This document shows positions 25,192 through 60,677 of a stretch of DNA of 64,000 nt, piece by piece. This DNA comes from Candidatus Cloacimonadales bacterium (lineage in GTDB: Bacteria; Cloacimonadota; Cloacimonadia; Cloacimonadales; JAFGVF01). Position 1 is the stretch's first letter; every line of letters starts with the position of its first letter. The position numbers were made by a program, and so were the translations under genes. Under the pieces are notes generated by a model. The model was not told the DNA's origin. It ran no database searches and was given only the letters and a program-made list of their open reading frames with translations. Location: NCBI GenBank assembly GCA_963663475.2, contig CAXXJV010000001.1, positions 388,279 through 452,278 of the forward strand. Reading direction: 5' to 3'.

Positions 25192-25195
25192 TAAA

Positions 25196-26041: not shown

Positions 26042-26203
26042 CCCGAATGGTGCAGTAGAACTTTGATGAAGAGTGCTAGATTCTTTTAGCAAAATAAGTT
26101 ACAGAATTTGAAGGCATATAATATATATATTCCTGAAAATTATGTAGCTTACTTTTGCAAAAGAAGATAGTGCTATTCGCAAAGGTCTACTGCATTATTT
26201 GGG
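26042..26203 (+). mobile_element. MITE-like element (162 bp)
   Basis: CCCGAATGGTGCAGTAGA...TCTACTGCATTATTTGGG, flanked by ATTAA (26037-26041 and 26204-26208). It abuts the ackA stop codon. Confidence 0.9.
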
Positions 26204-26204
26204 A

Positions 26205-44900: not shown

Positions 44901-45366
44901 CTTCTAGAGCTCCTTCATAATCTTCATCAAGTAATTTGCGAGGAACTTCCCCTTGAATACAAGCTGAAAGAGCTATTATACCTTCATTGTACTTTTGCAG
45001 GTCTGCTTTTATCATTCTAGGTTTGTAATATAGGCCCTCAGTAAAGGAATGGGATGATAGCTTAATCAAATTCTTATAACCTTGTAGGTTCATAGCAAGT
45101 AGGACTAGATGATAACGTTTTTTATGCTTGCTATCACTGTCATCATAATTGCCATTTATCACATAGGCTTCAGTACCAATTATTGGTTTAATGCCTGCAG
45201 CCTTTGCCTTGTTGTAAAATTCAATAGTCCCAAACATGTTACCATGATCTGTCATTGCTACTGCATTCATTCCTAGCTTAACAGCTTTATTAATCATTCT
45301 ATCTATTCTACATGCACCATCTAGCAAGCTATATTGCGTATGGTTGTGTAGATGTACAAAAGACAT
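41932..45366 (-). CDS. dnaE: DNA polymerase III alpha subunit
   Basis: 1144 aa with the PHP domain FVHLHNHTQYSLLDG, polymerase core and OB fold. SD GAGGGAG is upstream. Confidence 0.97.
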   Translation of the reverse strand: MSFVHLHNHTQYSLLDGACRIDRMINKAVKLGMNAVAMTDHGNMFGTIEFYNKAKAAGIKPIIGTEAYVINGNYDDSDSKHKKRYHLVLLAMNLQGYKNLIKLSSHSFTEGLYYKPRMIKADLQKYNEGIIALSACIQGEVPRKLLDEDYEGALEALQEYKDIFPGRFYLELQDHGLELERKVMPQLIELAQETDTPLVVTNDCHYLDKEDAEAHDVLLCIQTGKKFDDPDRMKYETQDLYFKSEAEMRVLFPNLPEAYDNTQKIADMIDLQLNYDNFLFPKIDVPEQYKDMADYMRGLCYEGAKRKYPEITPEIEERINFELGIINKMGYDGYFLVVKDFMDKAREMGIPVGPGRGSAAGSIVAYTLDITQLDPLRYGLLFERFLDLKRVGMPDIDIDFCAKGRSKVIDYVVEKYGRESVTQIITFGKLGAKSIIKDVARVMDVSPQDAAKMTKLIPSNPKMTLDKAVKESDDFRYLMESNETYKRILRDSKVLEGLIRQTGIHAAGVVIGPDDLSNYVPLAVSSQKTGENAVLVQYEGKWLDDLKLLKMDFLGLKTLTIIQKAKEYVKESQAIDIDIENVDITDKETFKLLSKGLTDGVFQFESPGMKKYLSKLKPNKFEDLIAMVALYRPGPMQFIDTYINRKHGKEDIVYDHELTRSSLEETYGVTVYQEQVMQISKVMGNFTSAEAGVLRKAISKKKLDMMAEMFIKFQEGSLKNGVPEATIKKIWDNWLEFANYAFNKSHAACYAFISFQTAYLKAHYPVEFMAAILSLEEDPAKIPYFIEECKKMNIEVDPPDINNSEEEFTVKGNKIQFGLRGIKNVGAAAIKEILENRSLDGPFSSLFDLSSRLNSSAVNKTTLESLIASGAADSLEGNRAQKWLAIADALDYSTSCQKSKDQMTLFDLMDNEEEATDYYPQLKKVAEWNQKEKLRREKEVLGFYVSGHPLQEKRAIIESIVNVDSQYPAQKMGVPSKAIIVGIMTNKIKKKAKSGDYYGVISFEDLKGKFEITLYKERFNEYYDKLIEGEIYAIIGSQSNFNNDDVLLKLNPNVIKPYQEFRQEIGGEITINISREGLANIVKSNYLDVIKTYKGKHYLKFIVETEEWDDVVLLSQEFTVDPCSDFCNFWSKKNIPYSIQGSLE

Positions 45367-45392
45367 AAATTCTCCCTCATCTTTTTTATATA

Positions 45393-45422
45393 ATATTAAA
45401 ATTGCTCTTGCTTTACTGTCAA
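45393..45422 (-). promoter_or_regulatory. Possible sigma70-type promoter for dnaE
   Basis: On the minus strand: TTGACA (45417-45422), an 18-nt spacer, then TAATAT (45393-45398). Confidence 0.4.
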
Positions 45423-45554
45423 TAAAATTTATCTTTTTCTCTTTTTTATAAGCTAAGCTTACTCTTAACAGGTATTTTTTAAGTATTACTTAATTTTTCT
45501 TGACAAATTATTACTGGCAGGTATTTTTTACTTATTAACTTTAAGGGAGATAAT

Positions 45555-46034
45555 ATGGAAGCAAAAATTGTTGAATTACCTAAACTCTATTTTATTGGCT
45601 TAAAAGCACAACTAACTATGAAAGAAACAGACACTATTTGCCCTGCACTCTGGAGTGATTTAATGTCTCAATCCCAAGATTTAGATGGGAATGAGGAATT
45701 AATGTGCATAGCTGCTTGCCTAGCACCAGAGAATTGTGGAGAAAACGATACCTTTACTTATATGGCTGGTTTTGCTTCTGATAAAGCTATTCCTCCTCGC
45801 CCAGGCTTTATTTCTCATGAGATTTCTGCCTGTACTTATGCTGTTTTTACCCATAAAGGTTCTGTTATGAACATGGGTGAAACTTATGATTATGCCTATA
45901 AAACATGGCTACCTAATAGTAAATACCAAGTTAAGTGGCATGAAGATTTAGAACATTATGATAGCAGATTTAACCCTGAAAATAGTGAAAAATCTGAAAT
46001 GGATATTTATATCCCAATTCAAGAAAAGAAATAA
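45555..46034 (+). CDS. GyrI-like / AraC effector-binding-domain protein
   Basis: 159 aa. The size and pattern (LYFIGLK..., YAVFTHKG, EMDIYIPI) are typical of GyrI-like small-molecule-binding domains. Confidence 0.6.
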   Translation: MEAKIVELPKLYFIGLKAQLTMKETDTICPALWSDLMSQSQDLDGNEELMCIAACLAPENCGENDTFTYMAGFASDKAIPPRPGFISHEISACTYAVFTHKGSVMNMGETYDYAYKTWLPNSKYQVKWHEDLEHYDSRFNPENSEKSEMDIYIPIQEKK

Positions 46035-46079
46035 TATTTGGATCAAATCCAATAAAATACTAGATTTTTCCAACTCCAA

Positions 46080-46159
46080 CCCCTTCATCTACTAAAAGAG
46101 AAATGTGCATTTCTTACTTAGTGGATTTAGTCCTCCTCCTCCCGAGGAGGATTAAGGGG
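46080..46159 (+). repeat. GC-rich structured element (multi-stem)
   Basis: CCCCTT...AAGGGG closing stem. It encloses the stems ATCTACTAA/TTAGTGGAT, AGAAATG/CATTTCT and TCCTCCTC/GAGGAGGA. Confidence 0.45.
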
Positions 46160-46370
46160 TGATTAAAGCTTTAACAACTAACACAGAGTTAACTTCCCTT
46201 TAAGAAGTGATGCCCATAGCAATCTATTTATTCTTATCTAGTCAAGAATGAAAAGCTAAAAATTTCCCCAAAATTATCAAATTGTCATTATGCTAATTAT
46301 GAGCATGATTTTCTCTTGACACTATTCTCCTTAATTTTAAGCTAAAGAAAATTATTAAATAGAGGTAATA

Positions 46371-47597
46371 ATGATAGAATATTTAGAATCACTAGTACCA
46401 GCAAACTCTTTTTTACCTGGATTAGTCAGAGCTTTTATTATCTTAATCTTAGCAGGTGTAATTTATCTATTTTCTAGATTAGCAATGAAGATTGTCCATA
46501 AGATTATTATAAAGAGTAAGGTAACTTGGGACGACTACATGATCAAGAGAAATGTCATTTCAAGCTTAGTTCCCATTCCTGCCCTTCTCTTTCTTTATCA
46601 ATTTACTTCTTATTTTCACTATAGTGGTAAGTTCCTAGCTAAGTTAGTGTCTTCCTTAGTTATCGTTGTAATGCTAATCTTCTTCAATAACCTGTTAACA
46701 GCTCTAAATGATATTTATAAAAGACTAGAGATCTCTCGAGGAAAATCTATCAAAGGCTTCATTCAAGTCTTCATGATAATTCTTTATATACTAGGTTTTC
46801 TAATAATCGTATCAATTTTCATAAACACTAATCCTCTTGTTTTAATTAGTGGTTTAGGAGCTATGACAGCTGTATTAATGTTAATTTTTAAAGACACTAT
46901 TCTCTCCTTTGTTGCCAGTGTGAGAATTACGACTAGTGATATTATTAAAATAGGTGATTGGTTAGAAGTACCAAAATTTGGAGCAGATGGTGATGTTGTC
47001 GACATATCACTCTATAATATCCAGATCCAGAATTGGGATAAAACTATTACTAACATACCTACCTATAAGTTAATTGATGATTCTTTTAAGAACTGGCGAG
47101 GTATGCAGGAAGCTGGTGGCCGTAGAATCATGAGAAAGATTGTCTTAGATATTTCAAGTGTTAAATTCTGTGATGACCAAATGCTTGCTAAATTCGAGAA
47201 AATTAACTATCTCAAGGATTATATTGAGCAAAAGAAAAAAGAATTAGCAGACTATAATCAGAAGCATAATATAGATGATTCTGTCCTTGTAAATGGTAGA
47301 AGAATGACTAATCTAGGTACTTTTAGAGCATATGTGGCTAACTACCTAAAACACCATCCATATGTCCATAAAGATCTGATCTTTCTAATCAGACAATTAG
47401 AAGCTGAAAAAGATGGTATCCCTCTCCAGATCTATGTCTTTGTTAATCAAACTGCCTGGGTTAAATATGAAGATATTCAGTCTGATATCTTTGACCATTT
47501 ACTAGCTGTTGTTCCTGAGTTTGGACTTAGAATCTTCCAAAACCCTTCTAGCTATAATTTTGAAAAGATAGCAGAAAATCTCATTAAGGATAAATAA
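46371..47597 (+). CDS. Mechanosensitive ion channel, MscS family (YbdG-like)
   Basis: 408 aa. TM segments plus the beta-domain IKIGDWLEVPKFGADGDVVDISLYNIQIQNWDKTITNIPTYKL. Confidence 0.85.
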   Translation: MIEYLESLVPANSFLPGLVRAFIILILAGVIYLFSRLAMKIVHKIIIKSKVTWDDYMIKRNVISSLVPIPALLFLYQFTSYFHYSGKFLAKLVSSLVIVVMLIFFNNLLTALNDIYKRLEISRGKSIKGFIQVFMIILYILGFLIIVSIFINTNPLVLISGLGAMTAVLMLIFKDTILSFVASVRITTSDIIKIGDWLEVPKFGADGDVVDISLYNIQIQNWDKTITNIPTYKLIDDSFKNWRGMQEAGGRRIMRKIVLDISSVKFCDDQMLAKFEKINYLKDYIEQKKKELADYNQKHNIDDSVLVNGRRMTNLGTFRAYVANYLKHHPYVHKDLIFLIRQLEAEKDGIPLQIYVFVNQTAWVKYEDIQSDIFDHLLAVVPEFGLRIFQNPSSYNFEKIAENLIKDK

Positions 47598-48424
47598 TGA
47601 AGTTAAAAATCTTACTCCAAAAAGGTCAAGCTCAACTAGCAGACCATAAAATAGAAAATCCTGGTTTAAACATTGGACTTATCTTGCAGGAAGTTACTGG
47701 GATTAAAAGACTATCTATCCCCCTCCACTATGAGGATGAAGTCAACCCCAACCAGATAAAAACTATCACCGAGATGCTAGACAGAAGATGTAAGAATGAA
47801 CCTTTGCAATATATCTTTGGCTATACTGAATTTTACGGACATAAGATTCTTCTCAATCCCCAGGTTTTAATTCCCAGACCAGAAACTGAATACCTAATAG
47901 AAATAATTAAAAATACTCAGCTAAATCCCCAAAGAATATTAGATATTGGAACAGGTTCAGGAGCAATAGCCATTTCTTTGAAAGCCATCTTCCCCCATGC
48001 TCAGGTTGTGGGACTAGATATTTCACTGGAAGCCCTTAAATTAGCTAGAAAGAATGCTCAATTAAATGATCTAGAAATAGATTTTATCCAAGCTGATATC
48101 TATAAAGCTCAATTAGGAAAATTTGATTTGCTTGTCTCTAATCCCCCCTATATCTCTCAAGAAGATTATGCAATTCTACCTGACGAAGTTAAAAGATTTG
48201 AACCTCAATTAGCCCTAGTTGGCCTAGAATCTGGTCTTTATTTTTACAGAAAGATTATCGAAATGAGCCATCTAATCCTAACTGATCAAGGACATATATT
48301 CTTTGAGATTGGTGAAAAACAAGGACTTGAAATTACTAATCTTGCCCAGAAATATAATTTTAAGCAAGTCAACATTATCCCAGATTTAGTTGGTAGAGAC
48401 AGAATTATTAGCATGACAAACTAG
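47597..48424 (+). CDS. prmC: Release-factor glutamine N5-methyltransferase
   Basis: 275 aa with DIGTGSGAIA and the NPPY motif (VSNPPYI). It has a 1-nt overlap with the upstream stop (TAATG). Confidence 0.9.
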   Translation: MKLKILLQKGQAQLADHKIENPGLNIGLILQEVTGIKRLSIPLHYEDEVNPNQIKTITEMLDRRCKNEPLQYIFGYTEFYGHKILLNPQVLIPRPETEYLIEIIKNTQLNPQRILDIGTGSGAIAISLKAIFPHAQVVGLDISLEALKLARKNAQLNDLEIDFIQADIYKAQLGKFDLLVSNPPYISQEDYAILPDEVKRFEPQLALVGLESGLYFYRKIIEMSHLILTDQGHIFFEIGEKQGLEITNLAQKYNFKQVNIIPDLVGRDRIISMTN

Positions 48425-48643
48425 TTGTTCACTATGCAATTCGTGAAATATGGGGATAGACTTCTTTGGCAAGTGACTACCTCTTGTAGTGGTTTGTCTC
48501 AGACAGTTTTAAAAAACTGCCTGTTGCGGACAAGCTAGTCGCATTCCCAGTTAAATTATTGAACTATTCTCAAAAGCCTACTCTACTGTTTGCGATAATT
48601 CTTAACCAAATTTCAATTGACGTAATTTGCCTATATTTATGAA

Positions 48644-50905
48644 ATGACATTGGGAGAAAAAATGAAAACATCACACATAAATATCTGGATATTTGTCTTT
48701 TTAATAATATTTGGTTTATCAGTTCTATCAGCAGAAGAAATAGAAACATTGATAAATACAGGGGAAAAGGAGATTGAAAACTTAGCCCAGCTTAAGGAAA
48801 TACTTTCAATAAATGCAAGTCTTGATGAAAATTTAAAGCAAGTGATTAATTTTGCCGACTCCCTTCTCTTTGACCAAAAAGCAGAAGAATCCCTTAATTT
48901 GCTAAAGGTTGCTCTTGCTGATTCAATATTTGCAGACTATTCTAGCCAAAGGGAGCTTAAGTTTAAAATCTATGATATTTATTCCTACCAGTGGGATTTT
49001 TCTCAATCAATACCCAAAGTACTAGAAATCTTTAAGGCAGATTCTCTCCACAATGATCTAGGCAGTATGGCCCACTCATCTCTCTGGGTAGCAACTACCT
49101 ATTTAGATAATTACGACAATGATAACTGTTTAAAATGGATTAACAAGAGCAAGTACTATGCAAGTCAAGCTGATTCTACTAGAATTTTAGCTTATCTAGC
49201 TATGTTAGAAGGTGATATTGCCTTAGTTAACAATAATACAAGCTTAGCTTTTGAACTCTACAAGCAAGCTGAAGCCTATACCCCTTCTTTTCCAGTTTCC
49301 AACACTGCTGCCCTAATTTACCTTAGTTTAGCTTCAATTTACACTAGTTTAGATCAACAAGATGCTACTGTTGAATATTATTCAAAAACAGCTGAAGTAT
49401 ATAATTCTTTAGAAGATTATGCAGGTGTTTCACTTGCCTATTATAATTTAGCTATTACTTATGGTAATATGAATAATTACCAAAAAGCCTTACATTACTC
49501 CCTGAAAAGTATTGATGTTTGCCTGCAAGAAGAAAACAAATTTGCAATTTCTGATATGCTAGTTTCCTGTTATGCTTTAACTTCACAGCTTTATGAAAGA
49601 TTAGAAGATTGGGAAAACTCTCTCAAATATCTTAAATTATCAGATGAGATAGTTGAAGACAATACTGCTGTTAGTACTAGGATTGAAAAAACAAATCAAT
49701 ACATTCGTTTCTATACTAAATTAGATAATTATGACCAAGCCCTCCACTATGTAAAACTTGGAGATAGCTTAAAAACACAGCAACTTACCCCGTCTAATGA
49801 AAATGATTATCTGATAGCTAGACTTAATTTTTATGAGACTTTTGGAGATTATGAAAAAGCAACTAGTATATCTAAACAGTTAATTACTAACATTAGAAAG
49901 ACAAGCTCTCAAAAAATTTCAGACCTTATTGCTGAACATGAGGCTGATAGGAACATTGACAAAATTAACCAAGAAAAACAAAAATTACTGCTGGATAATA
50001 CTAAGAAAAATCTTACAATAGCTAATCAGTACAAGACTATTTACCTTGTTTTATCACTTATCTTATTAATCTCAACCCTAGCAATTATTATCTATCAAAG
50101 ATATAAATCAAAGACTAAATTAGCAAGTTTACTTAATACAAAAGTTGAAGAGAGAACCAAAGAACTCAAGGAAGCTAATAGCAAACTCTTAGCTGAAATT
50201 GAAGACCACAGAGCAACTACTAATCAGCTCGTCTTTGCTCAAAGACTTACAGGAGTTGGTGAAATAGCTTCTGGCTTAGCCCATGAAATCCGCAATCCAT
50301 TAACTAATATCTTGGCTTCTATTCAGATTCTTAAAACAAAATATGATATTGAAAATGATGAATTTACCAACATAATTATTAGAAATACTCAAAATGCTAA
50401 TACTAGAGTCAATGAACTCCTCAATTACAGTCAGCCTATCGATTTTCATAAAGAAACTATTTCGCTTCACAGACTTATCAACGAAGTAATTAATCTTGCT
50501 AAGGGAAAACTAAATAAAGAAAATATCAAGCTAAACTATTGCAATAATAGCAAGCAAGATCTTGTTTCAGTTGATAAAAAACAAATTTCTACCGTCTTTT
50601 TAAACTTAATATTAAATTCCATAGATGCTATAAAATCGACTGATAAAGAAGGTTTAATTGAAATCACAAGCAGAGATGAATTCAACTTTGTTGTAGTTGA
50701 ATTTACTGATAATGGTTGCGGAATTAAAGCAAATATCATTTCTAAAATTTTCCAGCCTTTCTTCTCTAATAAAAAGGGTGGAACTGGCTTAGGGCTAAAC
50801 TTGGCTCACAAAATCATCCATCAACATGGTGGTCTTATTAGCGTTAATAGTGAAGTTGAAGTAGCAACTACTTTTACTGTGAAATTACTAAATATTAAAT
50901 CCTAA
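48644..50905 (+). CDS. TPR-containing sensor histidine kinase
   Basis: N-terminal TM, TPR-like sensor region, second TM (IYLVLSLILLISTLAIIIY), H-box LAHEIRNPL and ATPase boxes. ATG 48662, preceded by GGGAG, is the likelier start. Confidence 0.85.
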   Translation: MTLGEKMKTSHINIWIFVFLIIFGLSVLSAEEIETLINTGEKEIENLAQLKEILSINASLDENLKQVINFADSLLFDQKAEESLNLLKVALADSIFADYSSQRELKFKIYDIYSYQWDFSQSIPKVLEIFKADSLHNDLGSMAHSSLWVATTYLDNYDNDNCLKWINKSKYYASQADSTRILAYLAMLEGDIALVNNNTSLAFELYKQAEAYTPSFPVSNTAALIYLSLASIYTSLDQQDATVEYYSKTAEVYNSLEDYAGVSLAYYNLAITYGNMNNYQKALHYSLKSIDVCLQEENKFAISDMLVSCYALTSQLYERLEDWENSLKYLKLSDEIVEDNTAVSTRIEKTNQYIRFYTKLDNYDQALHYVKLGDSLKTQQLTPSNENDYLIARLNFYETFGDYEKATSISKQLITNIRKTSSQKISDLIAEHEADRNIDKINQEKQKLLLDNTKKNLTIANQYKTIYLVLSLILLISTLAIIIYQRYKSKTKLASLLNTKVEERTKELKEANSKLLAEIEDHRATTNQLVFAQRLTGVGEIASGLAHEIRNPLTNILASIQILKTKYDIENDEFTNIIIRNTQNANTRVNELLNYSQPIDFHKETISLHRLINEVINLAKGKLNKENIKLNYCNNSKQDLVSVDKKQISTVFLNLILNSIDAIKSTDKEGLIEITSRDEFNFVVVEFTDNGCGIKANIISKIFQPFFSNKKGGTGLGLNLAHKIIHQHGGLISVNSEVEVATTFTVKLLNIKS

Positions 50906-50910
50906 AAAAA

Positions 50911-50929
50911 GAGCCTAAATACTAGGCTC
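50911..50929. terminator. Bidirectional rho-independent terminator between convergent genes
   Basis: GAGCCTA-AATAC-TAGGCTC stem-loop. It is preceded by an A7 run and followed by a T-rich stretch. Confidence 0.6.
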
Positions 50930-50979
50930 TCAAATTTATCTAAATAGTGCAGATTCTGCTACTAGCAAAGGCCTACGCC

Positions 50980-51582
50980 TTATTTAGCTTGTATTTTTAC
51001 TACATAATTTAACATTTGTTTATCTGATTTATGAATATCAGGGCACATCCATTCTTCCAGAATTTCAAACCTAGGCTTGAGTAGTTTAACAATCTGTCTA
51101 TGTTTGTAATAGCTAGAGAATAAGCCCTTATCATCAAAGTCCTGACCACTTCCCTCATATAAAGAGAAAAAGAAAACACCAGTAAATTGAATATTATCAA
51201 TGAATTCCTGTAACTGTTCAAAAGTAAGATGTTGCATTGCTAGATTACAGAAGAGGTGTTTAATCTCATAATCTCTAATAAAAGAATTTACAAAATCAAC
51301 ATCAGAAAAATCTATATAAGCAAAAGGACAGGCAAACCTGCTCCCTATCCATTCATAAAATCCTAGGACATTATCAGAACCTTGAATGCTTCTACCCTGT
51401 CCAAAAATGTAAGTGAGATTATTTCCAGAACCAGATCCAAGCTCCAATATCTTTTCCTTACCATCTACATATTTGAGAAATTTCTCTACCCCTTCCTGAT
51501 GATAATTATTAAAAGTTTGGGCAATATAATCTACACATATTTCATCATATATTTCCATATTTTTATCAATATTTTTTCTCAT
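50980..51582 (-). CDS. Class I SAM-dependent methyltransferase
   Basis: 200 aa with motif I ILELGSGSGNN. Confidence 0.7.
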   Translation of the reverse strand: MRKNIDKNMEIYDEICVDYIAQTFNNYHQEGVEKFLKYVDGKEKILELGSGSGNNLTYIFGQGRSIQGSDNVLGFYEWIGSRFACPFAYIDFSDVDFVNSFIRDYEIKHLFCNLAMQHLTFEQLQEFIDNIQFTGVFFFSLYEGSGQDFDDKGLFSSYYKHRQIVKLLKPRFEILEEWMCPDIHKSDKQMLNYVVKIQAK

Positions 51583-51627
51583 TTTTTATCCTTATTTTTG
51601 CCTGCCAAGATAAGTCTTACTTAACAG

Positions 51628-52872
51628 CTATTTTTTTCCTATGATATCTCTAAAATTAAGAAGTAGATTTAGAACCATTCCTACAAGAGCCGCCAATCCT
51701 AAGCCTTCTAATTCAAAACTTCCATAGGCAAATTTAGCATTTCCTAAACCAATTACTAGCATTGAAGCTGAAATTATTAGTATCTTAGGATTAGAAAAAT
51801 CAACTTTCGCATCAATCATATTTTTGATACCAATTGAAGAAATCATCCCAAATAGTAAGATAGAAATACCACCAATTACTGGTCCTGGTATTACCTTGAT
51901 TAGCTCTGTAAATTTAGGGATGAAAGCTAAGATAATCGCAAACATGGCAGCAAATCTCATAATAATTGGATTGGTATTACCTGTGAGGGCTACAGCTCCA
52001 GTATTTTCACTATAAGTTGTTAAAACAGGTCCCCCCATGGCAGAAGATACACAACTTGCTACACCATCTCCAAATAAAGTTCTGTGAATACCTGGTTTGG
52101 TAAGAAAATCTTTCCCCGCAACATTACCAATAGCCAAAACATCGCCAAAATGCTCAACAATTGCAACTAAAGCAATTGGAACTGTTATTGATAAAGCATT
52201 AATGGAAAATTTTGGACTTGTTAAAGTAGGTAAACCAAACCAGTTAGCTTGCTGAACTGCTGACCAATCTATTAATCCAAAAATAGATGATACAAGAAAA
52301 CCAAAAATTAAGGAAATTAAAACTGGTAGCATGGATAAAAACTTCAAACCAATCTTTTCAAAATAAATTTTAACAAAGACTGATACAGCAAAAGTTGATA
52401 GAGCTAAAAGCCAGCAACCATTGGTTCCGATAGAGCTTTGTAAGTCAGGAGAATTACTTCCATTAGCATTTGCTATGGCAACTGGAGCTAAGATTAAGCC
52501 TATTAAGACAATCATCGGACCAGTTACCCAAGCAGGTAAGATTTTATGTAGAGATTCAATACTAATGAAATTTAATAATAAGCCAACTAACATAAACATA
52601 ACCCCTGCTCCAAAAATACCTCCTAGAGCATAAGCCATTCCACTATTGGCTGAGATGGAAGTTATGGCTGCGATAAAGGCAAAAGAAGATCCTAAATATA
52701 TTGGTACCATATTTTTGGTAATCAGGTGAAAAAGTAAGGTTCCAATACCTGTCGCTAAAAGGGTAGCCCCTATATCCAATCCTGTTAACATTGGCACTAA
52801 AACAGTTGCTCCAAACATAACAAAGGTATGCTGTAAGCCCATTATTACATTTCTACTATTGATGTCTTTCAT
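51628..52872 (-). CDS. Uracil/xanthine permease (NCS2 family)
   Basis: Polytopic protein of about 414 aa with NCS2-like segments. The track start at 52884 is TTG. ATG 52872 follows a GGGAG SD. Confidence 0.8.
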   Translation of the reverse strand: MKDINSRNVIMGLQHTFVMFGATVLVPMLTGLDIGATLLATGIGTLLFHLITKNMVPIYLGSSFAFIAAITSISANSGMAYALGGIFGAGVMFMLVGLLLNFISIESLHKILPAWVTGPMIVLIGLILAPVAIANANGSNSPDLQSSIGTNGCWLLALSTFAVSVFVKIYFEKIGLKFLSMLPVLISLIFGFLVSSIFGLIDWSAVQQANWFGLPTLTSPKFSINALSITVPIALVAIVEHFGDVLAIGNVAGKDFLTKPGIHRTLFGDGVASCVSSAMGGPVLTTYSENTGAVALTGNTNPIIMRFAAMFAIILAFIPKFTELIKVIPGPVIGGISILLFGMISSIGIKNMIDAKVDFSNPKILIISASMLVIGLGNAKFAYGSFELEGLGLAALVGMVLNLLLNFRDIIGKK

Positions 52873-53125
52873 TATTGCTCCCAAATATTTTGTTTTTTAT
52901 TTTTTTGGAATATCTGGAATTCTGTCAATTATTTTCGCTAAAAACTTATGCAAAAATGTGAAAACACCTTACAGGCAAGTCTGAAAAGAAGACTCTTATT
53001 TCTTTACGGTCTATTGGGATTATATTAGGCCTTCATTAGCTTTTCATTAGCTTTAGCCCCAATAAGTCACATGATAGAGACCTTATACAAGGCCATTATA
53101 CATTAGATTGTCAAAGGTCTATTAT

Positions 53126-53213
53126 CCCGAATAGTGCAGTAGAGCTTTAGAGAAGAGTGCCTATTCTTTCAGCAAAATAGTGGTATTCTCAAAGATCTAC
53201 TCCATTATTTGGG
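53126..53213 (+). mobile_element. MITE-like element, short form (88 bp)
   Basis: CCCGAATAGTGCAGTAGAGC...GATCTACTCCATTATTTGGG, flanked by ATTAT (53121-53125 and 53214-53218). Confidence 0.85.
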
Positions 53214-53223
53214 ATTATTAACT

Positions 53224-53685
53224 CTAGTCATCCTTGAACAAAGTTTGTAGCTTCTGGATAATCTGATTATAATGACTTCCTTGCCAATAGACTCTTCCGC
53301 ACTTATGACAAATTTTAAAATCATCATATATTTCAGCTACCTTTGCTGGGATTAGGTGGAGAATCTTAGCCTTGTCAATATCACTTAAAGGGTCATTATC
53401 TTCAGGGCATCTAGCGAATACAGACTCTTGGTCTAAGCTTAGGAAACTTTTTATTTCTGCTAATTGTTGGTCAAGCTGATTACTATGAATATAAATTCTA
53501 GCAAACTCCACAGGATGATTTAGAATTTCTTTACTTCTACTTACCACTATCCTATTTTCTTTCTTAGCCAGTCTTATCAAGTTCAAGAGAGAAATTGATT
53601 TTATTACTTTGGTATCATAACCCAATAATCTTAGCCATTTAGCTAATTTTTGAGCATCAACTGTTAGGATAAATTTCTTTTTCAT
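53224..53685 (-). CDS. Mut7-C RNase-domain (DUF82, PIN-like) protein
   Basis: 153 aa with FILTVDAQKLAKWLRLLGYDT and a C-terminal zinc ribbon (RCPEDN...CHKCGRVYWQGSH). Confidence 0.8.
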   Translation of the reverse strand: MKKKFILTVDAQKLAKWLRLLGYDTKVIKSISLLNLIRLAKKENRIVVSRSKEILNHPVEFARIYIHSNQLDQQLAEIKSFLSLDQESVFARCPEDNDPLSDIDKAKILHLIPAKVAEIYDDFKICHKCGRVYWQGSHYNQIIQKLQTLFKDD

Positions 53686-53691: not shown

Positions 53692-54378
53692 TTAGTCTCT
53701 AGCATTTCTCAAAACAAGTAATCTTACCACCTGCAATAATGCCATTAAAGCAGCAGCAACATAAGTAAGGGCAGCAGCCTTAAGCACCTTCTTAATTCCT
53801 GCCATTTCACTTTCTTCAACGACTAATCCATCACCAAGTTGCTGAAATGCTCTTTGGGAAGCGTTAAATTCAACTGGTAATGTAGCCAATTGGAATAAAA
53901 AAGCTGCCAGAAAAAAGATGATTCCCAGATTCATGAGCATAGGAGTATTGAAAAGAAATCCAATGAAAAATAAAGGTAAAGCTGCACTTGAACCAAACCT
54001 AGCCATTGGGAATATTGAGTGTCTTATCTTAAGAGGAAGATATCCATGGGCATGCTGAATAGCATGACCAACTTCATGAGCAGCGATAGCTAACGCTGAG
54101 ATAGTTTGCCCGTAATAAATATCACTTGAAAGCTTAACTTCTTTTTTTCTAGGGTCATAGTGGTCTGTTAATTCTCCCTCAAGAGCTAAAACTTGCACAT
54201 CATAAATACCATTCTTTTGTAGGATATGCTGAGCAACTTCAGCACCTGTCATACCAATATTGTTTGGTATTTTTTTATATTTACTGTAATTACTTTTTAC
54301 TAAAGAATTAGCCCATAAAGCTAATATTATAGCTGGAATGATTATTATTATGCTAGGATCATAAAAGAACATAATCAT
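53692..54378 (-). CDS. Membrane zinc metallopeptidase (Zn_peptidase_2 family)
   Basis: 228 aa with HEVGHAIQH and flanking TM segments. The start may be the third codon (ATG 54372). Confidence 0.85.
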   Translation of the reverse strand: MIMFFYDPSIIIIIPAIILALWANSLVKSNYSKYKKIPNNIGMTGAEVAQHILQKNGIYDVQVLALEGELTDHYDPRKKEVKLSSDIYYGQTISALAIAAHEVGHAIQHAHGYLPLKIRHSIFPMARFGSSAALPLFFIGFLFNTPMLMNLGIIFFLAAFLFQLATLPVEFNASQRAFQQLGDGLVVEESEMAGIKKVLKAAALTYVAAALMALLQVVRLLVLRNARD

Positions 54379-54402
54379 TTCTCCTTTTTTGTTTTTTTAG
54401 CA

Positions 54403-54431
54403 ATCATAAGAATGCCTTGCTAATTTGTCAA
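54403..54431 (-). promoter_or_regulatory. Sigma70-type promoter of the zinc-metallopeptidase gene
   Basis: On the minus strand: TTGACA (54426-54431), a 17-nt spacer, then TATGAT (54403-54408). This lies about 25 nt upstream of the AAGGAGA SD. Confidence 0.6.
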
Positions 54432-54579
54432 TATATTTTTTTATTTAAACCTAGAAGAGCAGTAGAGACTCTTCAACCATCAAGCCACCTTCTTCAATAG
54501 TTTATCCTTAAAGAAGTCAACAATATTGCCCTTCTTTAGGTTTTCTTGACATTTTATCAGGATTGCTTTTAGTTAAGAT

Positions 54580-54745
54580 TGCCACTTCAGTCGGACGGTG
54601 GAGATTCTCTTCCCACTAAGCCGTAAGCTTAAATCCCAGAGTGATGAAAATATTATAGGCAGTCGTCGCAAGACACTGTTGTTACGGAGACCAATGAAAT
54701 CTTAGTCCTAGAGGAGCGACAATATTCATTTCGCATTTTTATTTA
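54580..54745 (+). ncRNA. Candidate small RNA (unclassified)
   Basis: TTGACA at 54546 lies upstream. The segment is G+C-enriched and contains a bulged GNRA hairpin CAGTCGTC-GCAA-GACACTG (54660-54678). It ends in a weak stem (GCGA..TCGC) plus a T-rich tract. There is no downstream plus-strand gene. Confidence 0.25.
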
Positions 54746-54849
54746 TTTCTATTATGTCTATTATTAGGTGTCTAAAAACTGGCAAAATAAGCTTTAAGCT
54801 AAACCCTCTTTTTATTTTTTTGCTTATAGTAAACATTCGACAAGATCAA

Positions 54850-55170
54850 ATAGAAGTAGCCAGCAGGTTCACTGGCTAGGCCCCGTAACCACTTGGCATC
54901 TGCGTAACCGCGGGCTGGAATCCCGCGACCCAAAGACGGGTATGGCTTCCACTCCATAAAAAAGGTCTCAGAGGAAGAATGGGCAAGTAAGAATGCTTAT
55001 CGACTGGAGCAGACCAGAGTTCCTCAACCGTAGGTAAGGGACTTCGGACTGAGTGTGATGGCATCTTGCCATCAGATTTGTGGAAGCAGGGATGCTTATG
55101 GACTGATGGCATCTTGCCATCAGATTTGTGGAAGCAGGGATGCTTCCACTCCATAGGCCCCGTCTCTCTC
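54850..55170. repeat. GC-rich, highly structured non-coding locus (candidate large ncRNA or mosaic repeat)
   Basis: Local stems at 54859-54876, 54909-54927 (CGCGGG-CTGGAAT-CCCGCG) and 55130-55147 (GGAAGCA-GGGA-TGCTTCC). Shared core at 55020-55053, an internal 48-bp tandem duplication, and repeated 9- and 13-mers. Confidence 0.6.
55057..55152 (+). repeat. Tandem duplication, 2 x 48 bp
   Basis: The first 41 nt of each unit are identical (GATGGCATCTTGCCATCAGATTTGTGGAAGCAGGGATGCTT). Each unit contains the hairpin GATGGCA-TCT-TGCCATC. Confidence 0.9.
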
Positions 55171-55258
55171 TTACCATCCTTAATCCTTCCTTTACAGTCT
55201 TTCGATGAAAGTCCCAGTTTCATCGAAAGACTGTAAAGGAAGGGTAATGGATGGTAAG
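55170..55258. repeat. Hairpin-family repeat, copy 3 (extended)
   Basis: Perfect 26-bp stem 55185-55210 / 55218-55243 with the loop GTCCCAG. It is extended by CTTACCATCC (55170-55179) pairing with GGATGGTAAG (55249-55258). Confidence 0.85.
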
Positions 55259-55270
55259 GGTATTGATAAG

Positions 55271-55328
55271 CCCAAATAATGCAGTAGAAGGTTGAGCTAT
55301 TGCATAAATTCTACTGCACTATTTAGCC
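55271..55328 (-). mobile_element. MITE-like element, mini form, opposite orientation
   Basis: CCCAAATAATGCAGTAGA...TCTACTGCACTATTTAGCC. The termini are the reverse complements of the family ends. One end is degenerate and no clear TSD is visible. Confidence 0.6.
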
Positions 55329-55383
55329 TAAAATTATAAGCTGGCAGAGCCAGCTCACAATTCAAGTATTTTAAAGATGCATA

Positions 55384-58300
55384 TTATTTATCTAAGAGAT
55401 ATTGAATAGCTGTTTTCAACTGCCTATCATTATCATTAATCATATCTTCAGGTGTAAGTTCTACTCTGATATCAGGTTGAACTCCATTACCTTCCATATT
55501 AGTTCCACTTAAAGTCCACCAACCTGATCTAGGTAATCTTAGAGATGAACCATCAAAGAGGTCAATATCAAAGGTACCGATTACTGATCCACTTGTTGGC
55601 ATACCAATAATAGTCCCTAGCTTTTGTTCCTGCATTAGGTGAGGAAATACCTCAGCATCTGAGAAGGAATCTTCATCAATTAGAACAACAATGGGTTTGT
55701 CATAGTAACGAGCGGGAGTTTTCATTTTCCTAAATCCCCAACCCCTATAGGAAGAAATTGAGAGAGGTCTTTTGCGAATAGCTTCAACAAGTTCTTCACT
55801 AATATTACCACCACCATTACCTCTAACATCGATAATAAAACCATCTTTCTTAATATTATCGTTCCAAAAGTCTTCTAAGAATTTTTTATAAGCAGTATTA
55901 TTCATACGTCTGATATGCAAGTAAGCTAGCTTGCCATCACTAATTTCATTAACTATTTCCCTACGTCTGTTAACCCAGTCATTATACTCTAGGTCATAAT
56001 TACGACTCCAATCAAAGCCTTCAATCCAAACATCAAAGGCTTCCTCTTTTTGCTTTTTAACCCTAAGTTTTACCTTGCGATTAACGATATTAAAGAAAAG
56101 AGGATAAATATCGACATCAGGAGTAATTTCTTGGTCATTAATTGCTAGAATCAAATCTCCTTCTTCTAGTTTATAATAATCTTTTAGACTTGTCCCATCA
56201 TAAAGTCTTCTAAGTTTGACACCTTTATTGAGTCTTTCTGAAAGGTCAAATTCAACTCCAATATAGCCAATCTGATAAGAGAATCTTGAATCATAGTATT
56301 TAGGAGAAAATCCTGTATGGGAAGCATTTACTTCGCCAATCATTTCATCAACGATATTGGATAAAACTTCTTCATCATAACAGTATTGTAGGTAAGGTTC
56401 ATACTTTTCATAAAGTTCATCCCAGTCAACCCCATGCATTTGAGGATCGTAGAAGCTTAAGCCAAAGACTCCCCAGACTTCTTTGAAAACTTGTTGTCTA
56501 AGATTTTTTAAATCAAATTCATAGAAGAAGCTATTTTTAATTTCTCCACTAGCTCTAGTTTTTAAGTTATAAGAGTTAAGTTTACTTCCATCATTATAGT
56601 AATAAGTAGAGGATTTATCATTATAAGAGAAGTAAGTTCTATCGTTAATAGTGGTTAGCTTTTCTTCATTTTGTCCTTGATAATTAGACTTATAAAGATT
56701 TGTAGAACCATTTGAATTAGCATAATAAATAGTTGAGTCATTAACTACCGATAGAATATAGTTATATCCTGGATGAGAAACAATTGTAGTTATTCTGGAT
56801 TCAACACCTGGAAGGTCAATATCCAATTCAGGATAATCTTTAGGGAGCTTATCTCCTGTCTCTTTCTTTTCTTCTACTTGGTCTGAACTATTGAGCAGTT
56901 TTTCCCAAGGATCCTGATAATCTGCAAGTTTATCAAAAGGCCTTAAATCTATCCGTCTAATATCTCCTGATTCGGTAAAGAATAATGATTTATCGTCTTT
57001 ACCCCAAGTTAGATTATAGATAGATTTATAGGAGTTATAAAGTAGATAGGATTCTTGAATAATTGTATCTCTAAGATAAAGATAGGTTACTCTTTTCTCC
57101 ATATCAAATTCAACATAAGCAATATAACGTGAATTTATCCTATCTGCATATTCAGTAACATCATACTTATTAAAATCAATTGGAGTAAAATAAGTAAAAG
57201 TTGAATCAGCTATAGCAATATGACGTCTATCTCTATCAATGTAATAATCAATAATGTAGTTTCCAGCTGGACTTTTACTAATTCCCGAGATAGAATAATC
57301 TTCACTCCAAGCTATCTTCTCTATTTCCTGAGGATTATCTATAGTAAATTTAAAGATTTTACCTTCTCCTCTTTCTCTGCCATTAACCACAACAGTCTTG
57401 TTATCGCTTAATATTCTAATACCTTCATAAGGAACCTGATTGTAAGTAATCTGTTTAACTGGTCCGCCAGCTGCTGGCATCATAAAGAGGTCATATTCAT
57501 AATTGAAAATAACAAAATCATCATTAGGAGATACTTCAAAATCAGCAAAACCGTTTGTAACATATCTGCGTATCATGCTATTAACATCTTGGTTCTCTCT
57601 AATATCGATATCTAATTTTCTTAATTTATCTCCTCTTTCAGGCTTATCATCATAAATCCAGATTTCATCAAACTTCTCAAAAGCAATAATATCCTTTACC
57701 TGAGCAATAGAAATATCTCTAACAGACCATGTTGGAAAATCAGTAAGTTGTTCTTCATTATTAAAATCGAAATTATTTACCCTGAATAACTGAAAAACTT
57801 GGCCATCAGATTTAGCGTAATATAGTCTTTCTGGATAAACCTTTGATAATTCTGGATATCTTTCTGTCAACTCATTATCAGTCAACTTCTCATACTTATC
57901 TTGCTTGATATCATACTTCCATAATTCTCCATCAGTTGAGCCACGATAAGCTTCCCTATAAGGATCACCTCTATCAGAATATATAATTGAATTACCATCT
58001 TGACTAATAGAAGGGAAGGAACCACCTATTGGAGTAATTTCCACGTCTCTTGACTCATCAAGACTAACCTTATAAAAAGCAGAACCTAATCTGGGAGAAT
58101 ATTTATTAGCTAGGATATTTTCCCCATCTGGGAACCAAGTTAAGAGTCCCAATCCAGCTCCACTCACCTTAGTAATTTCACCACCTATTGCAGGAATAGT
58201 ATATACAGCGTTATAGCCATCTTTGTAATAATTGAATGCTATTGTTTGCCCGTCAGGAGAATACTTAGGACTACTTATACCTGAATCGGTATCAGTTAAT

Positions 58301-58470
58301 CTACTGGCGAGACCACCCTCAATAGCTACTTTCCATAAATCTCCTCGATAAACAAAAGTTACTTCACTTGCATCTGGTGATACAGCTGGGTCTTTTACGA
58401 AATGTGGTTCAAATGCCGCAACATAAATACTCATGATTAGCAAAAACCCTACAATTAAAATCTTCTTCAT
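55384..58470 (-). CDS. Tricorn-like S41-family protease (beta-propellers + PDZ + peptidase)
   Basis: 1028 aa. N-terminal TolB-like repeats (SPDASEVTFVYRGDLW, SPDGQTIAF), a PDZ-like segment and the S41 core DVRGNGGGN..DEDSFSDAE. Confidence 0.85.
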   Translation of the reverse strand: MKKILIVGFLLIMSIYVAAFEPHFVKDPAVSPDASEVTFVYRGDLWKVAIEGGLASRLTDTDSGISSPKYSPDGQTIAFNYYKDGYNAVYTIPAIGGEITKVSGAGLGLLTWFPDGENILANKYSPRLGSAFYKVSLDESRDVEITPIGGSFPSISQDGNSIIYSDRGDPYREAYRGSTDGELWKYDIKQDKYEKLTDNELTERYPELSKVYPERLYYAKSDGQVFQLFRVNNFDFNNEEQLTDFPTWSVRDISIAQVKDIIAFEKFDEIWIYDDKPERGDKLRKLDIDIRENQDVNSMIRRYVTNGFADFEVSPNDDFVIFNYEYDLFMMPAAGGPVKQITYNQVPYEGIRILSDNKTVVVNGRERGEGKIFKFTIDNPQEIEKIAWSEDYSISGISKSPAGNYIIDYYIDRDRRHIAIADSTFTYFTPIDFNKYDVTEYADRINSRYIAYVEFDMEKRVTYLYLRDTIIQESYLLYNSYKSIYNLTWGKDDKSLFFTESGDIRRIDLRPFDKLADYQDPWEKLLNSSDQVEEKKETGDKLPKDYPELDIDLPGVESRITTIVSHPGYNYILSVVNDSTIYYANSNGSTNLYKSNYQGQNEEKLTTINDRTYFSYNDKSSTYYYNDGSKLNSYNLKTRASGEIKNSFFYEFDLKNLRQQVFKEVWGVFGLSFYDPQMHGVDWDELYEKYEPYLQYCYDEEVLSNIVDEMIGEVNASHTGFSPKYYDSRFSYQIGYIGVEFDLSERLNKGVKLRRLYDGTSLKDYYKLEEGDLILAINDQEITPDVDIYPLFFNIVNRKVKLRVKKQKEEAFDVWIEGFDWSRNYDLEYNDWVNRRREIVNEISDGKLAYLHIRRMNNTAYKKFLEDFWNDNIKKDGFIIDVRGNGGGNISEELVEAIRKRPLSISSYRGWGFRKMKTPARYYDKPIVVLIDEDSFSDAEVFPHLMQEQKLGTIIGMPTSGSVIGTFDIDLFDGSSLRLPRSGWWTLSGTNMEGNGVQPDIRVELTPEDMINDNDRQLKTAIQYLLDK

Positions 58471-58477: not shown

Positions 58478-59749
58478 TCATCTTAAGTTTATTATTTCTT
58501 TATTATCATAAAAAGTATCTGAAACAATTAATGATTCTTTTAATATTTTAAGTCTTACACCATTGCCCAGTTTTCCCTTGCTTTTAATCATTAAAGCATC
58601 TCTATTATCAAGATCTATAGCCTCTTCAACCTTGTTTGATAAAAGTTCTTCTAGCTGTTTAATCTCTTTTTTTATTATAGCAACTTTCTCATTCTGACTA
58701 TCATTTTCATTAAAATATACCAGCTCTCGAGTTAAAATCATTAATTGTTGTTTGGTATATGGACTTACACTTATTTCAAGTTCTGAACAAGTATCACCTT
58801 CATTTCTTACATCATAGACTTGAATAAATCTAGAACTTTGAAGGTTGGAAGCAATAACTTTAGCCTCTTTTATTAAGCTAATAGATATTTCTCCTACTAG
58901 GCTTGAGTAAAAAACATCACCTGAAACGGTTAAGTCTTTTCCTGAAAAAACTTTTGAACTTTTTATCTGGCCACATTCAATAGATTGAGGACAAGTAACA
59001 CCTGCCCCATTACAGTTTTCAAGACTACCATTGATACTAATGCCATGCTCTCCATAAAGATTACTTTTGAAGACATTACCATTAATTGTTAGCTGCCCAA
59101 TTACCCTTATATGGCGAACATTACTAACATTACCATTAATAGTAAGATTACCTAAAACATAGATATTACCGTAATCCCTATCAATATCATGTTCTATGTA
59201 TAAATGATTTGTTATATTATACTTACCATCACTAGATAAAGACAAGTAGCCACTCTTGCTGGCAATAAATTCTCGAGATTCTAAGTTAAAATCAAGATTA
59301 TCACCCCGATACTTATCTATTAGTTTTTTCCTACCTTCAAGGGTTAAGAGGTAGTTTCCATAAACATCTTTTCGAGAAAACATATCTTCATCGTAAGATA
59401 ATTTCCCTATTGCTGATCCTTTTTGGACATAGACTAACTTGAAAATATTTGCCTCGTTAATAGGTGTCTTAGCATATAAGAGTTCTTCACTGTCATAATA
59501 GAGATCTAGCCTAACCTCTTGATCAATTGCTGGAACTTCTGCAATTTTAAAAGGATGATATAATTCTTTCTCTCCTTCTTGATCAATACTAGGAATAAAT
59601 CCATTGCTTATACCAGCTTTAGCAATTAAGTCTAAAATCTCATCTTGAGTAATAAAACCATTATCACGCTTAATTGTCATTGTAGCACATAAATGATTTT
59701 CAGTAACTTCTATTAAAATATCTTCTCGATTATTAGTGTATTTTTCCAT
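58478..59749 (-). CDS. FapA/DUF342-like protein (beta-helix repeats plus C-terminal coiled coil)
   Basis: 423 aa with repetitive VLGNLTINGNVSNV..VIGQLTINGNVFKSN and a coiled coil KKEIKQLEELLSNKVEE. Confidence 0.5.
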   Translation of the reverse strand: MEKYTNNREDILIEVTENHLCATMTIKRDNGFITQDEILDLIAKAGISNGFIPSIDQEGEKELYHPFKIAEVPAIDQEVRLDLYYDSEELLYAKTPINEANIFKLVYVQKGSAIGKLSYDEDMFSRKDVYGNYLLTLEGRKKLIDKYRGDNLDFNLESREFIASKSGYLSLSSDGKYNITNHLYIEHDIDRDYGNIYVLGNLTINGNVSNVRHIRVIGQLTINGNVFKSNLYGEHGISINGSLENCNGAGVTCPQSIECGQIKSSKVFSGKDLTVSGDVFYSSLVGEISISLIKEAKVIASNLQSSRFIQVYDVRNEGDTCSELEISVSPYTKQQLMILTRELVYFNENDSQNEKVAIIKKEIKQLEELLSNKVEEAIDLDNRDALMIKSKGKLGNGVRLKILKESLIVSDTFYDNKEIINLR

Positions 59750-60488: not shown

Positions 60489-60531
60489 CTATTAGGCTAA
60501 AATGCAGAATGTAAGCCCTAAAATGCTTTAA

Positions 60532-60636
60532 TCCGAATGGTGGAAAAGAGCTTTAGAGAAGAGTGGAGATTCTTTTTAGCAAAATAGCTTGCAAAAGAAT
60601 ATGGTGCTATTCTCAAAGATCTATTGCATTATTGGG
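60532..60636 (+). mobile_element. MITE-like element (105 bp, diverged)
   Basis: TCCGAATGGTGGAAAAGAGC...GATCTATTGCATTATTGGG, flanked by TTTAA (60527-60531 and 60637-60641). Confidence 0.75.
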
Positions 60637-60677
60637 TTTAAGGATTCAAGAGGAGAAAAAAACTAAGCTAAGAAGTT

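Follow-up and report, generated by a model that had tools for sequence, protein, structure and literature searches.

A probable cluster of REP/BIME-like palindromic repeats in a gene-free interval of a Cloacimonadales chromosome and its relatives at other intergenic sites

The window that we analysed, a chromosomal and Cloacimonadales-like stretch of 64 kb with a G+C content of 32.8%, carries housekeeping genes only. None of its 43 ORFs of at least 100 amino acids codes for a RAYT or any other transposase, for a reverse transcriptase or for a Cas protein. Two minus-strand genes, which encode a Zn-peptidase and a tricorn-like protease, enclose the gap of 1005 nt (54379-55383) on which this study is focused (Table 1). 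The Zn-peptidase flanking the gap exhibits 73-83% identity to its counterparts in Cloacimonadales MAGs. The promoter of its gene, which a consensus scan recognised with 11 of 12 matching positions, is located outside of the repeat cluster described below and downstream of it. At the opposite end of the gap, a GCTGGC-TCT-GCCAGC hairpin (55340-55354) followed by a T-rich tail probably serves the tricorn-like protease gene as its terminator; we read this signal from the sequence itself, and it escaped the consensus scan. With the protease terminator to the right of the repeats and the peptidase promoter to their left, the whole repeat assembly would consequently be placed past the terminator of one gene and ahead of the promoter of the following one. 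In total, the scan reported four promoter-like matches in comparison with 3.2 expected from shuffled sequences, and this corresponds to the background rate.

Table 1. Position and make-up of the genes, signals and repeats at the studied gap, and of the second family site in the window
Feature	Position	Strand	Remarks
Zn_peptidase_2 gene	53692-54378	-	Left neighbour of gap
Sigma-70-like promoter of Zn-peptidase gene, TTGACA-17-TATGAT	54403-54431	-	11/12 matches; consensus scan
Strain-specific segment, 549 nt	54614-55162	.	AT-rich left part (54614-54856) and GC-rich repeat cluster; L081 comparison
Hairpin S1, TAGCCAG-CAGGTTCA-CTGGCTA	54857-54878	.	Sequence; terminator-like scan match
Short unit 1	54878-54958	+	Start motif AGGCCCCGTAACC; GC hairpin 54909-54927; solo right-end motif GCTTCCACTCCATA (54945-54958)
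Degenerate hairpin-module copy, GGGCAAGTAAGAATGCTT-ATCGACTG	54981-55006	+	78% identity to 55079-55105
Dispersed 'core A' repeat copy, ~47 nt	55007-55053	+	Three copies in window; others ~13923-13970 (+), ~25493-25449 (-)
Two exact 42-nt units, 48 nt apart	55056-55145	+	Each with P and H hairpin
P hairpin, CTGATGGCA-TCT-TGCCATCAG	55103-55123	+	
H hairpins	55080-55097 (truncated), 55128-55149 (complete)	+	
Conserved family terminus, hairpin GTGGAAGCA-GGGA-TGCTTCCAC and tail TCCATAG	55128-55156	+	
10-nt direct repeat TAGGCCCCGT, second copy	55154-55163	+	First copy 54877-54886
89-nt palindrome, dispersed repeat	55170-55258	.	41-nt arms, 93% complementary; copies 6941-7036, 25514-25597
Short hairpin, terminal inverted repeats (CCCAAATAATGCAGTAGA) of ~170-nt MITE family	55269-55329	.	
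Probable intrinsic terminator of tricorn-like protease gene, GCTGGC-TCT-GCCAGC then TTATAATTTT	55330-55354	-	Read from sequence
Tricorn/S41 protease gene	55384-58470	-	Right neighbour of gap
FapA-domain protein gene, 423-aa ORF	58478-59749		Next to tricorn protease in kept gene order
Doublet hairpin, 115 nt, two inverted left modules	4405-4519		Between convergent genes

The original prediction for this locus had described a gene-free interval with a G+C-rich right half, and both statements are borne out. The G+C content reaches 0.46-0.515 in the region 54800-55200, in comparison with 0.33 for the whole window and 0.27-0.40 for the flanks, and no credible ORF is present across the gap. Those ORFs that had been listed there by a program read through repeats, as had been suspected: the longest of them (115 amino acids; 54876-55223, minus strand) crosses the repeats, found no homologue in a word-indexed protein search, and obtained a single match (P0121) in an exhaustive one, which is itself a spurious ORF running through the repeat array of another locus, L091. 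The further sequence features that had been listed are confirmed as well, in that all of them are present and above chance. The three local stems can be read directly in the sequence: TAGCCAG pairs with CTGGCTA in hairpin S1, CGCGGG-CTGGAAT-CCCGCG forms the hairpin at 54909-54927, and the third stem is that of the complete H hairpin. The 48-bp tandem duplication, which TRF missed, comprises two 42-nt copies with 100% identity (55056-55097 and 55104-55145). Two motifs are arranged in the order A...B...BA, with (T)AGGCCCCGT at 54877/8 and 55154/5 enclosing GCTTCCACTCCATA at 54945 and 55142. When one of the duplicate copies was masked, the repeat of 14 nt surpassed all 500 dinucleotide shuffles (maximum 11), and a repeat of at least 10 nt was encountered in 14 of these 500 shuffles. 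The core shared with two other positions in the window is real, and at ~47 nt it is wider than originally described; the corresponding alignments score 45-60 in comparison with shuffle means of 17-20 (sd ~3.5). The proposed head-to-tail junction at 55143-55163 also holds, as CCATAG...CCCCGTCT recurs at every unit boundary in the 252-nt array of the related locus L006. The fold energy of the block is significant (z = -4.5 for the plus strand and -4.2 for the minus strand), with values that are inflated by the exact duplication. Since both strands fold alike, the z-score is uninformative on the strand.

Several parts of the block have counterparts elsewhere. Short unit 1 aligns to the right part of an element at the locus L093 with a score of 41 in comparison with 19.4 +/- 3.5 for shuffles, and CCGTAACC also starts the L006 array. 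The terminus of the family can be described by the consensus GTGGAAGCA-NNNN-TGCTTCCAC-TCCATA(G/C), a 29-nt hairpin with its tail, and it is found five times in L006/L088, 12 times in L091 and, with respect to the tail only, in L093. In the window, it ends at most 7 nt from the boundary of the strain polymorphism outlined below. The second copy of TAGGCCCCGT corresponds to a unit junction or to the start of a truncated next unit; the unit junctions in L006 read CCATAG-N9-CCCCGTCT. At the left border, hairpin S1 is followed on the minus strand by CTTCTATTTG, hence its resemblance to a terminator. The right flank of the GC-rich block consists of three dispersed repeat families, and that of the ~170-nt MITEs is represented in the window by at least eight copies.

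The original prediction had matched the locus to none of RNase P, tmRNA, SRP, 6S and the riboswitch classes, and Rfam 15 provided no credible match. At gathering thresholds, the whole window yielded only a tRNA-Val away from the locus. When matches up to E = 10 were considered, most of those at the locus, and all with E < 0.05, were microRNA models placed on 55170-55258 that scored far below the thresholds; these spurious matches are caused by the 89-nt palindrome. The few weak and scattered matches elsewhere in the gap (E 0.12-6.7) were also far below the gathering scores. Rfam found nothing in the L006 array, and across the eight loci searched, nothing further was matched other than a tRNA (L003) and a group II intron (L002). 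An origin of the block from a group II intron was considered and rejected: the intron of L002 is a genuine one and occupies the corresponding gap, yet the window is matched by none of the intron models. A tRNA or tmRNA was likewise dismissed: ARAGORN found nothing at the locus, and the T-arm likeness of the hairpin at 54909-54927 is superficial, with no tRNA-like fold. The ORF of the L006 unit gave no result in a protein search, BLAST of the locus against phages and plasmids gave no match, and a search of the literature for repeats or structured RNAs of Cloacimonadota retrieved nothing relevant.

The locus L081 stems from the same species as the window, with 97-99% nucleotide identity over 10 kb. 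It aligns through 54613, resumes at 55163, and possesses ~90 unrelated bases instead of the 549-nt strain-specific segment. As this segment is absent from a conspecific strain, the GC-rich block represents a strain-level polymorphism. Neither a target-site duplication nor a clean empty site was found for the GC-rich cluster; L081 contains unrelated sequence and no simple excision scar, and the similarity of the ~90-base replacement to the repeat family does not rise above that of shuffles. Elsewhere in its gap, L081 carries two extra MITE insertions. A TTTATC duplication flanks the insertion site of the L081 copy of the ~170-nt MITE family. The contig L082 terminates within the same gap. Beyond the species, the order of the genes for the FapA-domain protein, the tricorn protease, the peptidase and Mut7-C is kept in L001, L002, L004, L005 and L006. 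In L001, L004, L005 and L006, the gap measures 140-355 nt and is free of the element, and the gap of L002, with its group II intron, extends over 2.4 kb. The promoter-proximal ~90-130 nt are common to these gaps, and 54379-54512 is the sole part of the gap that is conserved in other species. The comparison with related genomes for which the original prediction had called therefore did not reveal a conserved syntenic locus: the block is not syntenic, and it is absent from the conspecific L081.

The same modules are found at five other, non-syntenic intergenic sites that are distributed, when the species of the window is counted, over four species. These sites were detected within ~240 kb of sequence from several Cloacimonadales genomes; two family sites are present in the 64-kb window, and elsewhere they amount to ~1 per 50 kb, a figure that is an extrapolation only. 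At most sites, the modules are repeated in tandem, the period being 47, 50, 67 or 252 nt. When the gap was compared by BLAST with related loci, its hairpin and tail matched L006 five times. In L006, a non-coding unit of 252 nt is repeated 4.1 times in tandem with 98% identity; each copy carries the hairpin with its tail and the CCCCGTCT junction, and this array is situated in a different gap, between the genes for Mut7-C and a GyrI-like protein. The grammar of its unit is colinear with that of the window: CCGTAACC ... GCTTCCACTCCATA ... AAAGGTCT ... GTGGAAGCAG ... CCATAG ... CCCCGTCT. In L088, which belongs to the species of L006, the array comprises just ~1.7 units, and a DDE_5 insertion sequence is located inside it. 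In L091, which derives from the same genome as L002, three units of 47 nt and five units of 50 nt lie between clpX and a phosphatase gene and match the 48-nt unit of the window almost module for module; a second array of five 67-nt units is present 8 kb away. L093, from the fourth species, harbours a single element of ~190 nt immediately past a gene terminator. Its left module is that of L091 (AACTGGGA followed by a GCGGGCA...TGCCCG hairpin), and its right end is also the same. In the form AACTGGGA-N-GCGGGYA-NNN-TGCCCGY, this left module occurs in L091 (twice), in L093 and at position 4405 of the window. The doublet at 4405-4519 folds with -45 kcal/mol (z = -12.9) and possesses 10-nt terminal inverted repeats; AACTGGGA and TCCCAGTT bound both this element and the L091 composite.

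All six sites are intergenic, and in this small sample four of them are flanked by convergent genes and none by divergent ones. The orientation of the cluster relative to the flanking genes varies, since it is opposite to both genes in the window and co-directional in L093. Units are near-identical within an array and differ between arrays, a pattern that points to local amplification. An exact-pattern scan for the hairpin motif obtained no match in viral or metagenome contigs, the latter being a set that evidently does not include these genomes. A scan with a 19-mer of core A returned three chance matches in unrelated contigs, two of which have 63% GC.

At the level of the individual hairpins, an inner GCA-loop-TGC is common to the P, H and S units, and the hairpin at 54909-54927 does not have this core. 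The stems of the P and H units comprise 9 bp with loops of 3-4 nt, and that at 54909-54927 comprises 6 bp with a 7-nt loop. The outer stems differ between units yet stay complementary, which is a descriptive statement given that the units were chosen as hairpins; the pairs were counted by script in isolated palindromic units. Between the window and L091, two pairs of the P helix are changed on both sides (U-A to C-G and G-C to A-U), and 96% of the cells are paired; the homology of this 9-bp hairpin was set by its flanking sequence, and the comparison covers two species only. Since P is in essence the terminal hairpin H in inverted form, the units alternate in orientation. The H loop occurs in the variants GGGA, AGGA, GTGA and AGAGAC, and three of the four fit GNRA (GGGA, GTGA and GAGA). 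GGA and TCC are counted 10 and 6 times in the locus of the window, 21 and 22 times in L091, and 17 and 24 times in L006, and hence show no strand bias.

Collectively, these data lead us to assign a probability of about 0.7 to the view that extragenic repeats, short and palindromic, are clustered at 54878-55163, that they are similar to REP, BIME and tandem REPIN elements, and that they belong to a modular family of the Cloacimonadales. The comparisons demonstrate the family relationship of the modules, their non-syntenic distribution, the polymorphism in both their presence and their copy number, and the maintained complementarity of their hairpins. The family is a new one in terms of its sequence, previously undescribed in Cloacimonadota, and is of a known kind. 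According to PMC3337134, REPs are by definition short, extragenic and imperfectly palindromic, and P. fluorescens and E. coli possess REPIN repeats in a highly ordered tandem arrangement. The repeats studied here behave like a REP-type family and probably constitute one, a likeness that we judged independently of genome-wide abundance and of a RAYT gene. REP and REPIN families are generally present in tens to hundreds of copies per genome and possess a cognate RAYT (Y1 transposase) gene that is flanked by units. The REP-like reading pertains to the GC-rich cluster and does not extend to the AT-rich left part (54614-54856). From the alternatives offered by the original prediction, a large ncRNA or a repeat nest, the latter is upheld by the dispersed families in the flank and by the occurrence of the block modules at other intergenic sites. 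A large ncRNA gene is not, as the block is not syntenic, is absent in L081, has no Rfam match, and is represented outside this genome only by dispersed or tandem modules.

A REP-like nature of the cluster lends itself to the following model. The cluster is made up of a short unit, a long one in which the copy of core A is embedded, and the opening bases of another; the units are set in both orientations with short linkers between them, and the conserved 29-nt hairpin with its tail closes the assembly. Its recent lengthening by the exact 48-bp tandem duplication presumably occurred through slippage or unequal recombination between hairpin repeats. The site that it occupies would be a transcriptionally quiet gap, reaching from a terminator to a promoter, beside the 89-nt palindrome and a MITE stub. 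The family may have been spread by a transposase acting in trans, either RAYT/IS200-like or of another type, in combination with the local expansion of arrays. If there is an effect on the host at all, it might be the generic one of REP and BIME elements, in that additional hairpins would halt read-through transcripts or render them more stable.

Among the competing explanations, we consider it unlikely that the arrays constitute a family of structured ncRNAs built from multiple hairpins, which would serve as protein-sequestering or regulatory sRNAs, be tandemly amplified and move between intergenic sites. The fold z-score of -4.5 and the GC enrichment within an AT-rich genome are in line with this proposal, yet the two strands do not differ in how well they fold. 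On the minus strand, the block is enclosed by a hairpin resembling a terminator and a site resembling a promoter, but with four promoter-like matches against 3.2 in shuffles no framing signals rise above background. The conservation of the 29-nt hairpin and its single-stranded tail in at least three species, together with the compensatory pairs in the P hairpin, has to be set against the absence of the block from a conspecific strain, its lack of synteny, its variable orientation relative to the flanking genes, and a copy number that varies between strains (4.1 versus ~1.7 units) in an array that tolerates an insertion sequence. The loops GGGA, GTGA and GAGA, with their fit to GNRA, could hint at a role on the RNA level, and two loop variants read GCA-RGGA-UGC, which may resemble the consensus of CsrA-binding hairpins. 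However, the GGA of the loop is not conserved (GTGA, AGAGAC), its density is without strand bias, and no CsrA homologue is present in the sequence examined, the latter being a weak test. A sponge of the CsrB/RsmZ type was rejected on account of this loop variability and the unbiased GGA counts.

A discrete non-autonomous transposon, either a MITE or an IS200/IS605-derived (PATE-like) element that inserted beside the 89-nt palindrome, appears to us as a rather unlikely explanation. Its proposed ends would be AACTGGGA with a hairpin or, alternatively, CCGTAACC on the left, and the hairpin with TCCATA[C/G] on the right. The right terminus of the family indeed ends no more than 7 nt from the polymorphism boundary, but L081 offers no clean empty site. 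The left module AACTGGGA-N-GCGGGYA-NNN-TGCCCGY is conserved in L091 (twice), in L093 and at 4405, and AACTGGGA and TCCCAGTT bracket both the L091 composite and 4405-4519, yet the copy at the studied locus is devoid of the AACTGGGA left end. Subterminal hairpins at both ends have GCA-loop-TGC in common, and the 10-nt direct repeat TAGGCCCCGT flanks 54887-55153; across the sites, however, there is neither a consistent target sequence nor a consistent duplication. No cognate transposase was identified, and tandem arrays of identical units are better explained by local amplification than by repeated insertion. The transposon proposal overlaps to a large extent with the REP reading, since REPINs are in turn regarded as non-autonomous elements. 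We attach next to no probability to a degenerate or orphan CRISPR array or to the decayed remains of foreign or coding DNA. The 29-nt hairpin repeat with its short tail and the regular spacing of 47-67 nt in L091 are reminiscent of CRISPR, but the sequences between the repeats are identical within each array, so that there are no unique spacers, and this excludes a CRISPR array; moreover, the window has no cas genes, and its faint Cas3-like_C_2 match (E = 1e-5, below the Pfam cut-off) falls inside a RecG helicase. A GC content above that of the host genome would suit foreign DNA, yet the phage and plasmid collections contain no match, and the longest ORF (115 amino acids) has no protein homology that would argue for a coding fragment.

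A more speculative thought, which we hold to be improbable, is that the conserved hairpin with its tail (GTGGAAGCA-GNRA-like loop-TGCTTCCAC-UCCAUA) acts, like its partner hairpins, as a functional RNA module, or that these hairpins are the ends of a new kind of mobile element that recognises hairpins. If they were RNA modules, transcription of the arrays would yield RNAs with multiple hairpins, which would either bind or titrate a protein or be cut into RNAs of unit length, and the arrays would represent a new mobile and tandemly amplifying class of ncRNAs in Cloacimonadota. In AT-rich genomes, intergenic stretches that are GC-rich and fold well are classically a sign of new structured RNAs; at the locus studied here, clusters of palindromic repeats give this signature, and recognising them removes a false lead. 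The Cloacimonadota are an uncultivated phylum of importance in anaerobic digesters. Strains differ in whether they possess the repeats and in how many copies; such repeats could be of use as strain markers, and the contig that ends inside the gap indicates that they probably break short-read assemblies. Should a cognate transposase be found, systems of the REPIN/RAYT type would be extended beyond the Proteobacteria.

The family can be compared with four kinds of known elements. With the CsrB/RsmZ sRNAs, it shares several similar hairpins in a row and the two loop variants GCA-RGGA-UGC, but its GGA is neither conserved in the loop nor biased in strand, its array is not framed by a promoter and a terminator, and the locus is dispensable within the species. 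Like MITEs, including the ~170-nt family of the window, it is small, non-coding, dispersed and variable between strains, and the element at 4405-4519 has terminal inverted repeats of 10 nt; the GC-rich cluster differs from them in that it has no terminal inverted repeats and that no target-site duplication was seen, the 10-nt direct repeat being the sole candidate, and tandem arrays are atypical of MITEs. The BOX elements of Streptococcus pneumoniae follow the modular scheme boxA-boxB(n)-boxC. Resembling them, the family is modular, intergenic, non-coding and strongly folding, with conserved ends and a middle module in variable tandem number, yet there is no sequence relation, the middle units are hairpin pairs, and the end modules are only partly conserved between subfamilies. 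From the REP/BIME elements of E. coli and the tandem REPINs of Pseudomonas fluorescens (PMC3337134, PMC3116915), the family is set apart by its unrelated sequence, its occurrence in another phylum, the Cloacimonadota, its periods of up to 252 nt, and its extra non-palindromic modules. It has in common with them that the units are short, imperfectly palindromic, GC-rich and exclusively extragenic, that they are found in both orientations with short linkers and in ordered tandem repeats of a few units, that doublets form a long hairpin (4405-4519 of the window), that most of them reside at the 3' ends of genes, and that they are turned over between strains while their complementarity is kept.

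In the related genome L002, the gap between the tricorn protease and Zn-peptidase genes, which houses the GC-rich palindromic repeat cluster in the window, is filled by a group II intron whose Rfam D1-D4 and D5-D6 models exceed their gathering thresholds. Because this intron occupies the same gap, the locus is one where mobile DNA lands repeatedly. L082, a public contig of the window's species assembled from short reads, terminates within the repeat-rich gap, 160 nt upstream of the peptidase, as would be expected if repeats interrupt assemblies at this point. Each of this species' four public contigs carries an inserted element of ~500 nt with inverted ends GGCTCAAGTTCAAGTCTGGTGG immediately upstream of the peptidase promoter; the window does not carry it at this site.

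At least eight full or partial copies of a MITE family (~170 nt, inverted ends CCCAAATAATGCAGTAGA) lie within the 64-kb window, and related copies are also carried by L002, L003 and L005. One copy in L081, a public contig of the window's species, is flanked by a TTTATC duplication, and the corresponding site of the window is empty. Another gene-free interval of the window, ~1.1 kb in length, is densely packed with the same repeat families: ~2.5 MITE copies, the 89-nt palindrome, the ~47-nt dispersed repeat core A and the ~500-nt element.

Positions of repeats and mobile elements in the window and in related loci
Feature	Sequence	Positions
~170-nt MITE	window	7054-7250
~170-nt MITE	window	11974-12242
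~170-nt MITE	window	14075-14125
~170-nt MITE	window	25105-25367
~170-nt MITE	window	26036-26214
~170-nt MITE	window	53122-53221
~170-nt MITE	window	60528-60641
~170-nt MITE	L081	4177-4338
~500-nt element	window	~25689-25918
~500-nt element	L081	4461-4966
Second repeat-packed interval	window	25101-26205
Hairpin	window	4405-4519
GGAATCACCCCCTGTRTCCCCCTCA repeat	L001	7268-7375
GGAATCACCCCCTGTRTCCCCCTCA repeat	L006	316-411, 7255-7295
252-nt array	L006	7322-8348
252-nt array	L088	7332-7477, 9130-9421
Group II intron	L002	3993-5873

In the relatives L089 and L093, a GyrI-like gene, dnaE and GWxTD genes directly follow Mut7-C, whereas in the window (region compared, 39448-53224) they lie 7-14 kb from it. 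Since a block encoding an MscS-like channel, PrmC, a histidine kinase and a uracil permease (46371-53224) separates these neighbors, gene order indicates a rearrangement or insertion. Between Mut7-C and the GyrI-like gene, the related locus L006 harbors 4.1 tandem copies (98% identity) of a non-coding 252-nt unit. Its conspecific L088 has only ~1.7 units, with a 477-aa DDE_5 transposase gene inside the array; the flanks of this insertion overlap by 7 nt, suggesting a target-site duplication.

A further short palindromic repeat (GGAATCACCCCCTGTRTCCCCCTCA...) occurs as tandem pairs in two species, and a copy in L006 adjoins the end of the 252-nt array. Between convergent genes of the window lies a near-perfect 115-nt hairpin with a DNA folding energy of -45 kcal/mol (z = -12.9), composed of two mutually inverted AACTGGGA-GCGGGCA modules. 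It is a member of the same family as the GC-rich cluster, and it resembles a REPIN doublet.
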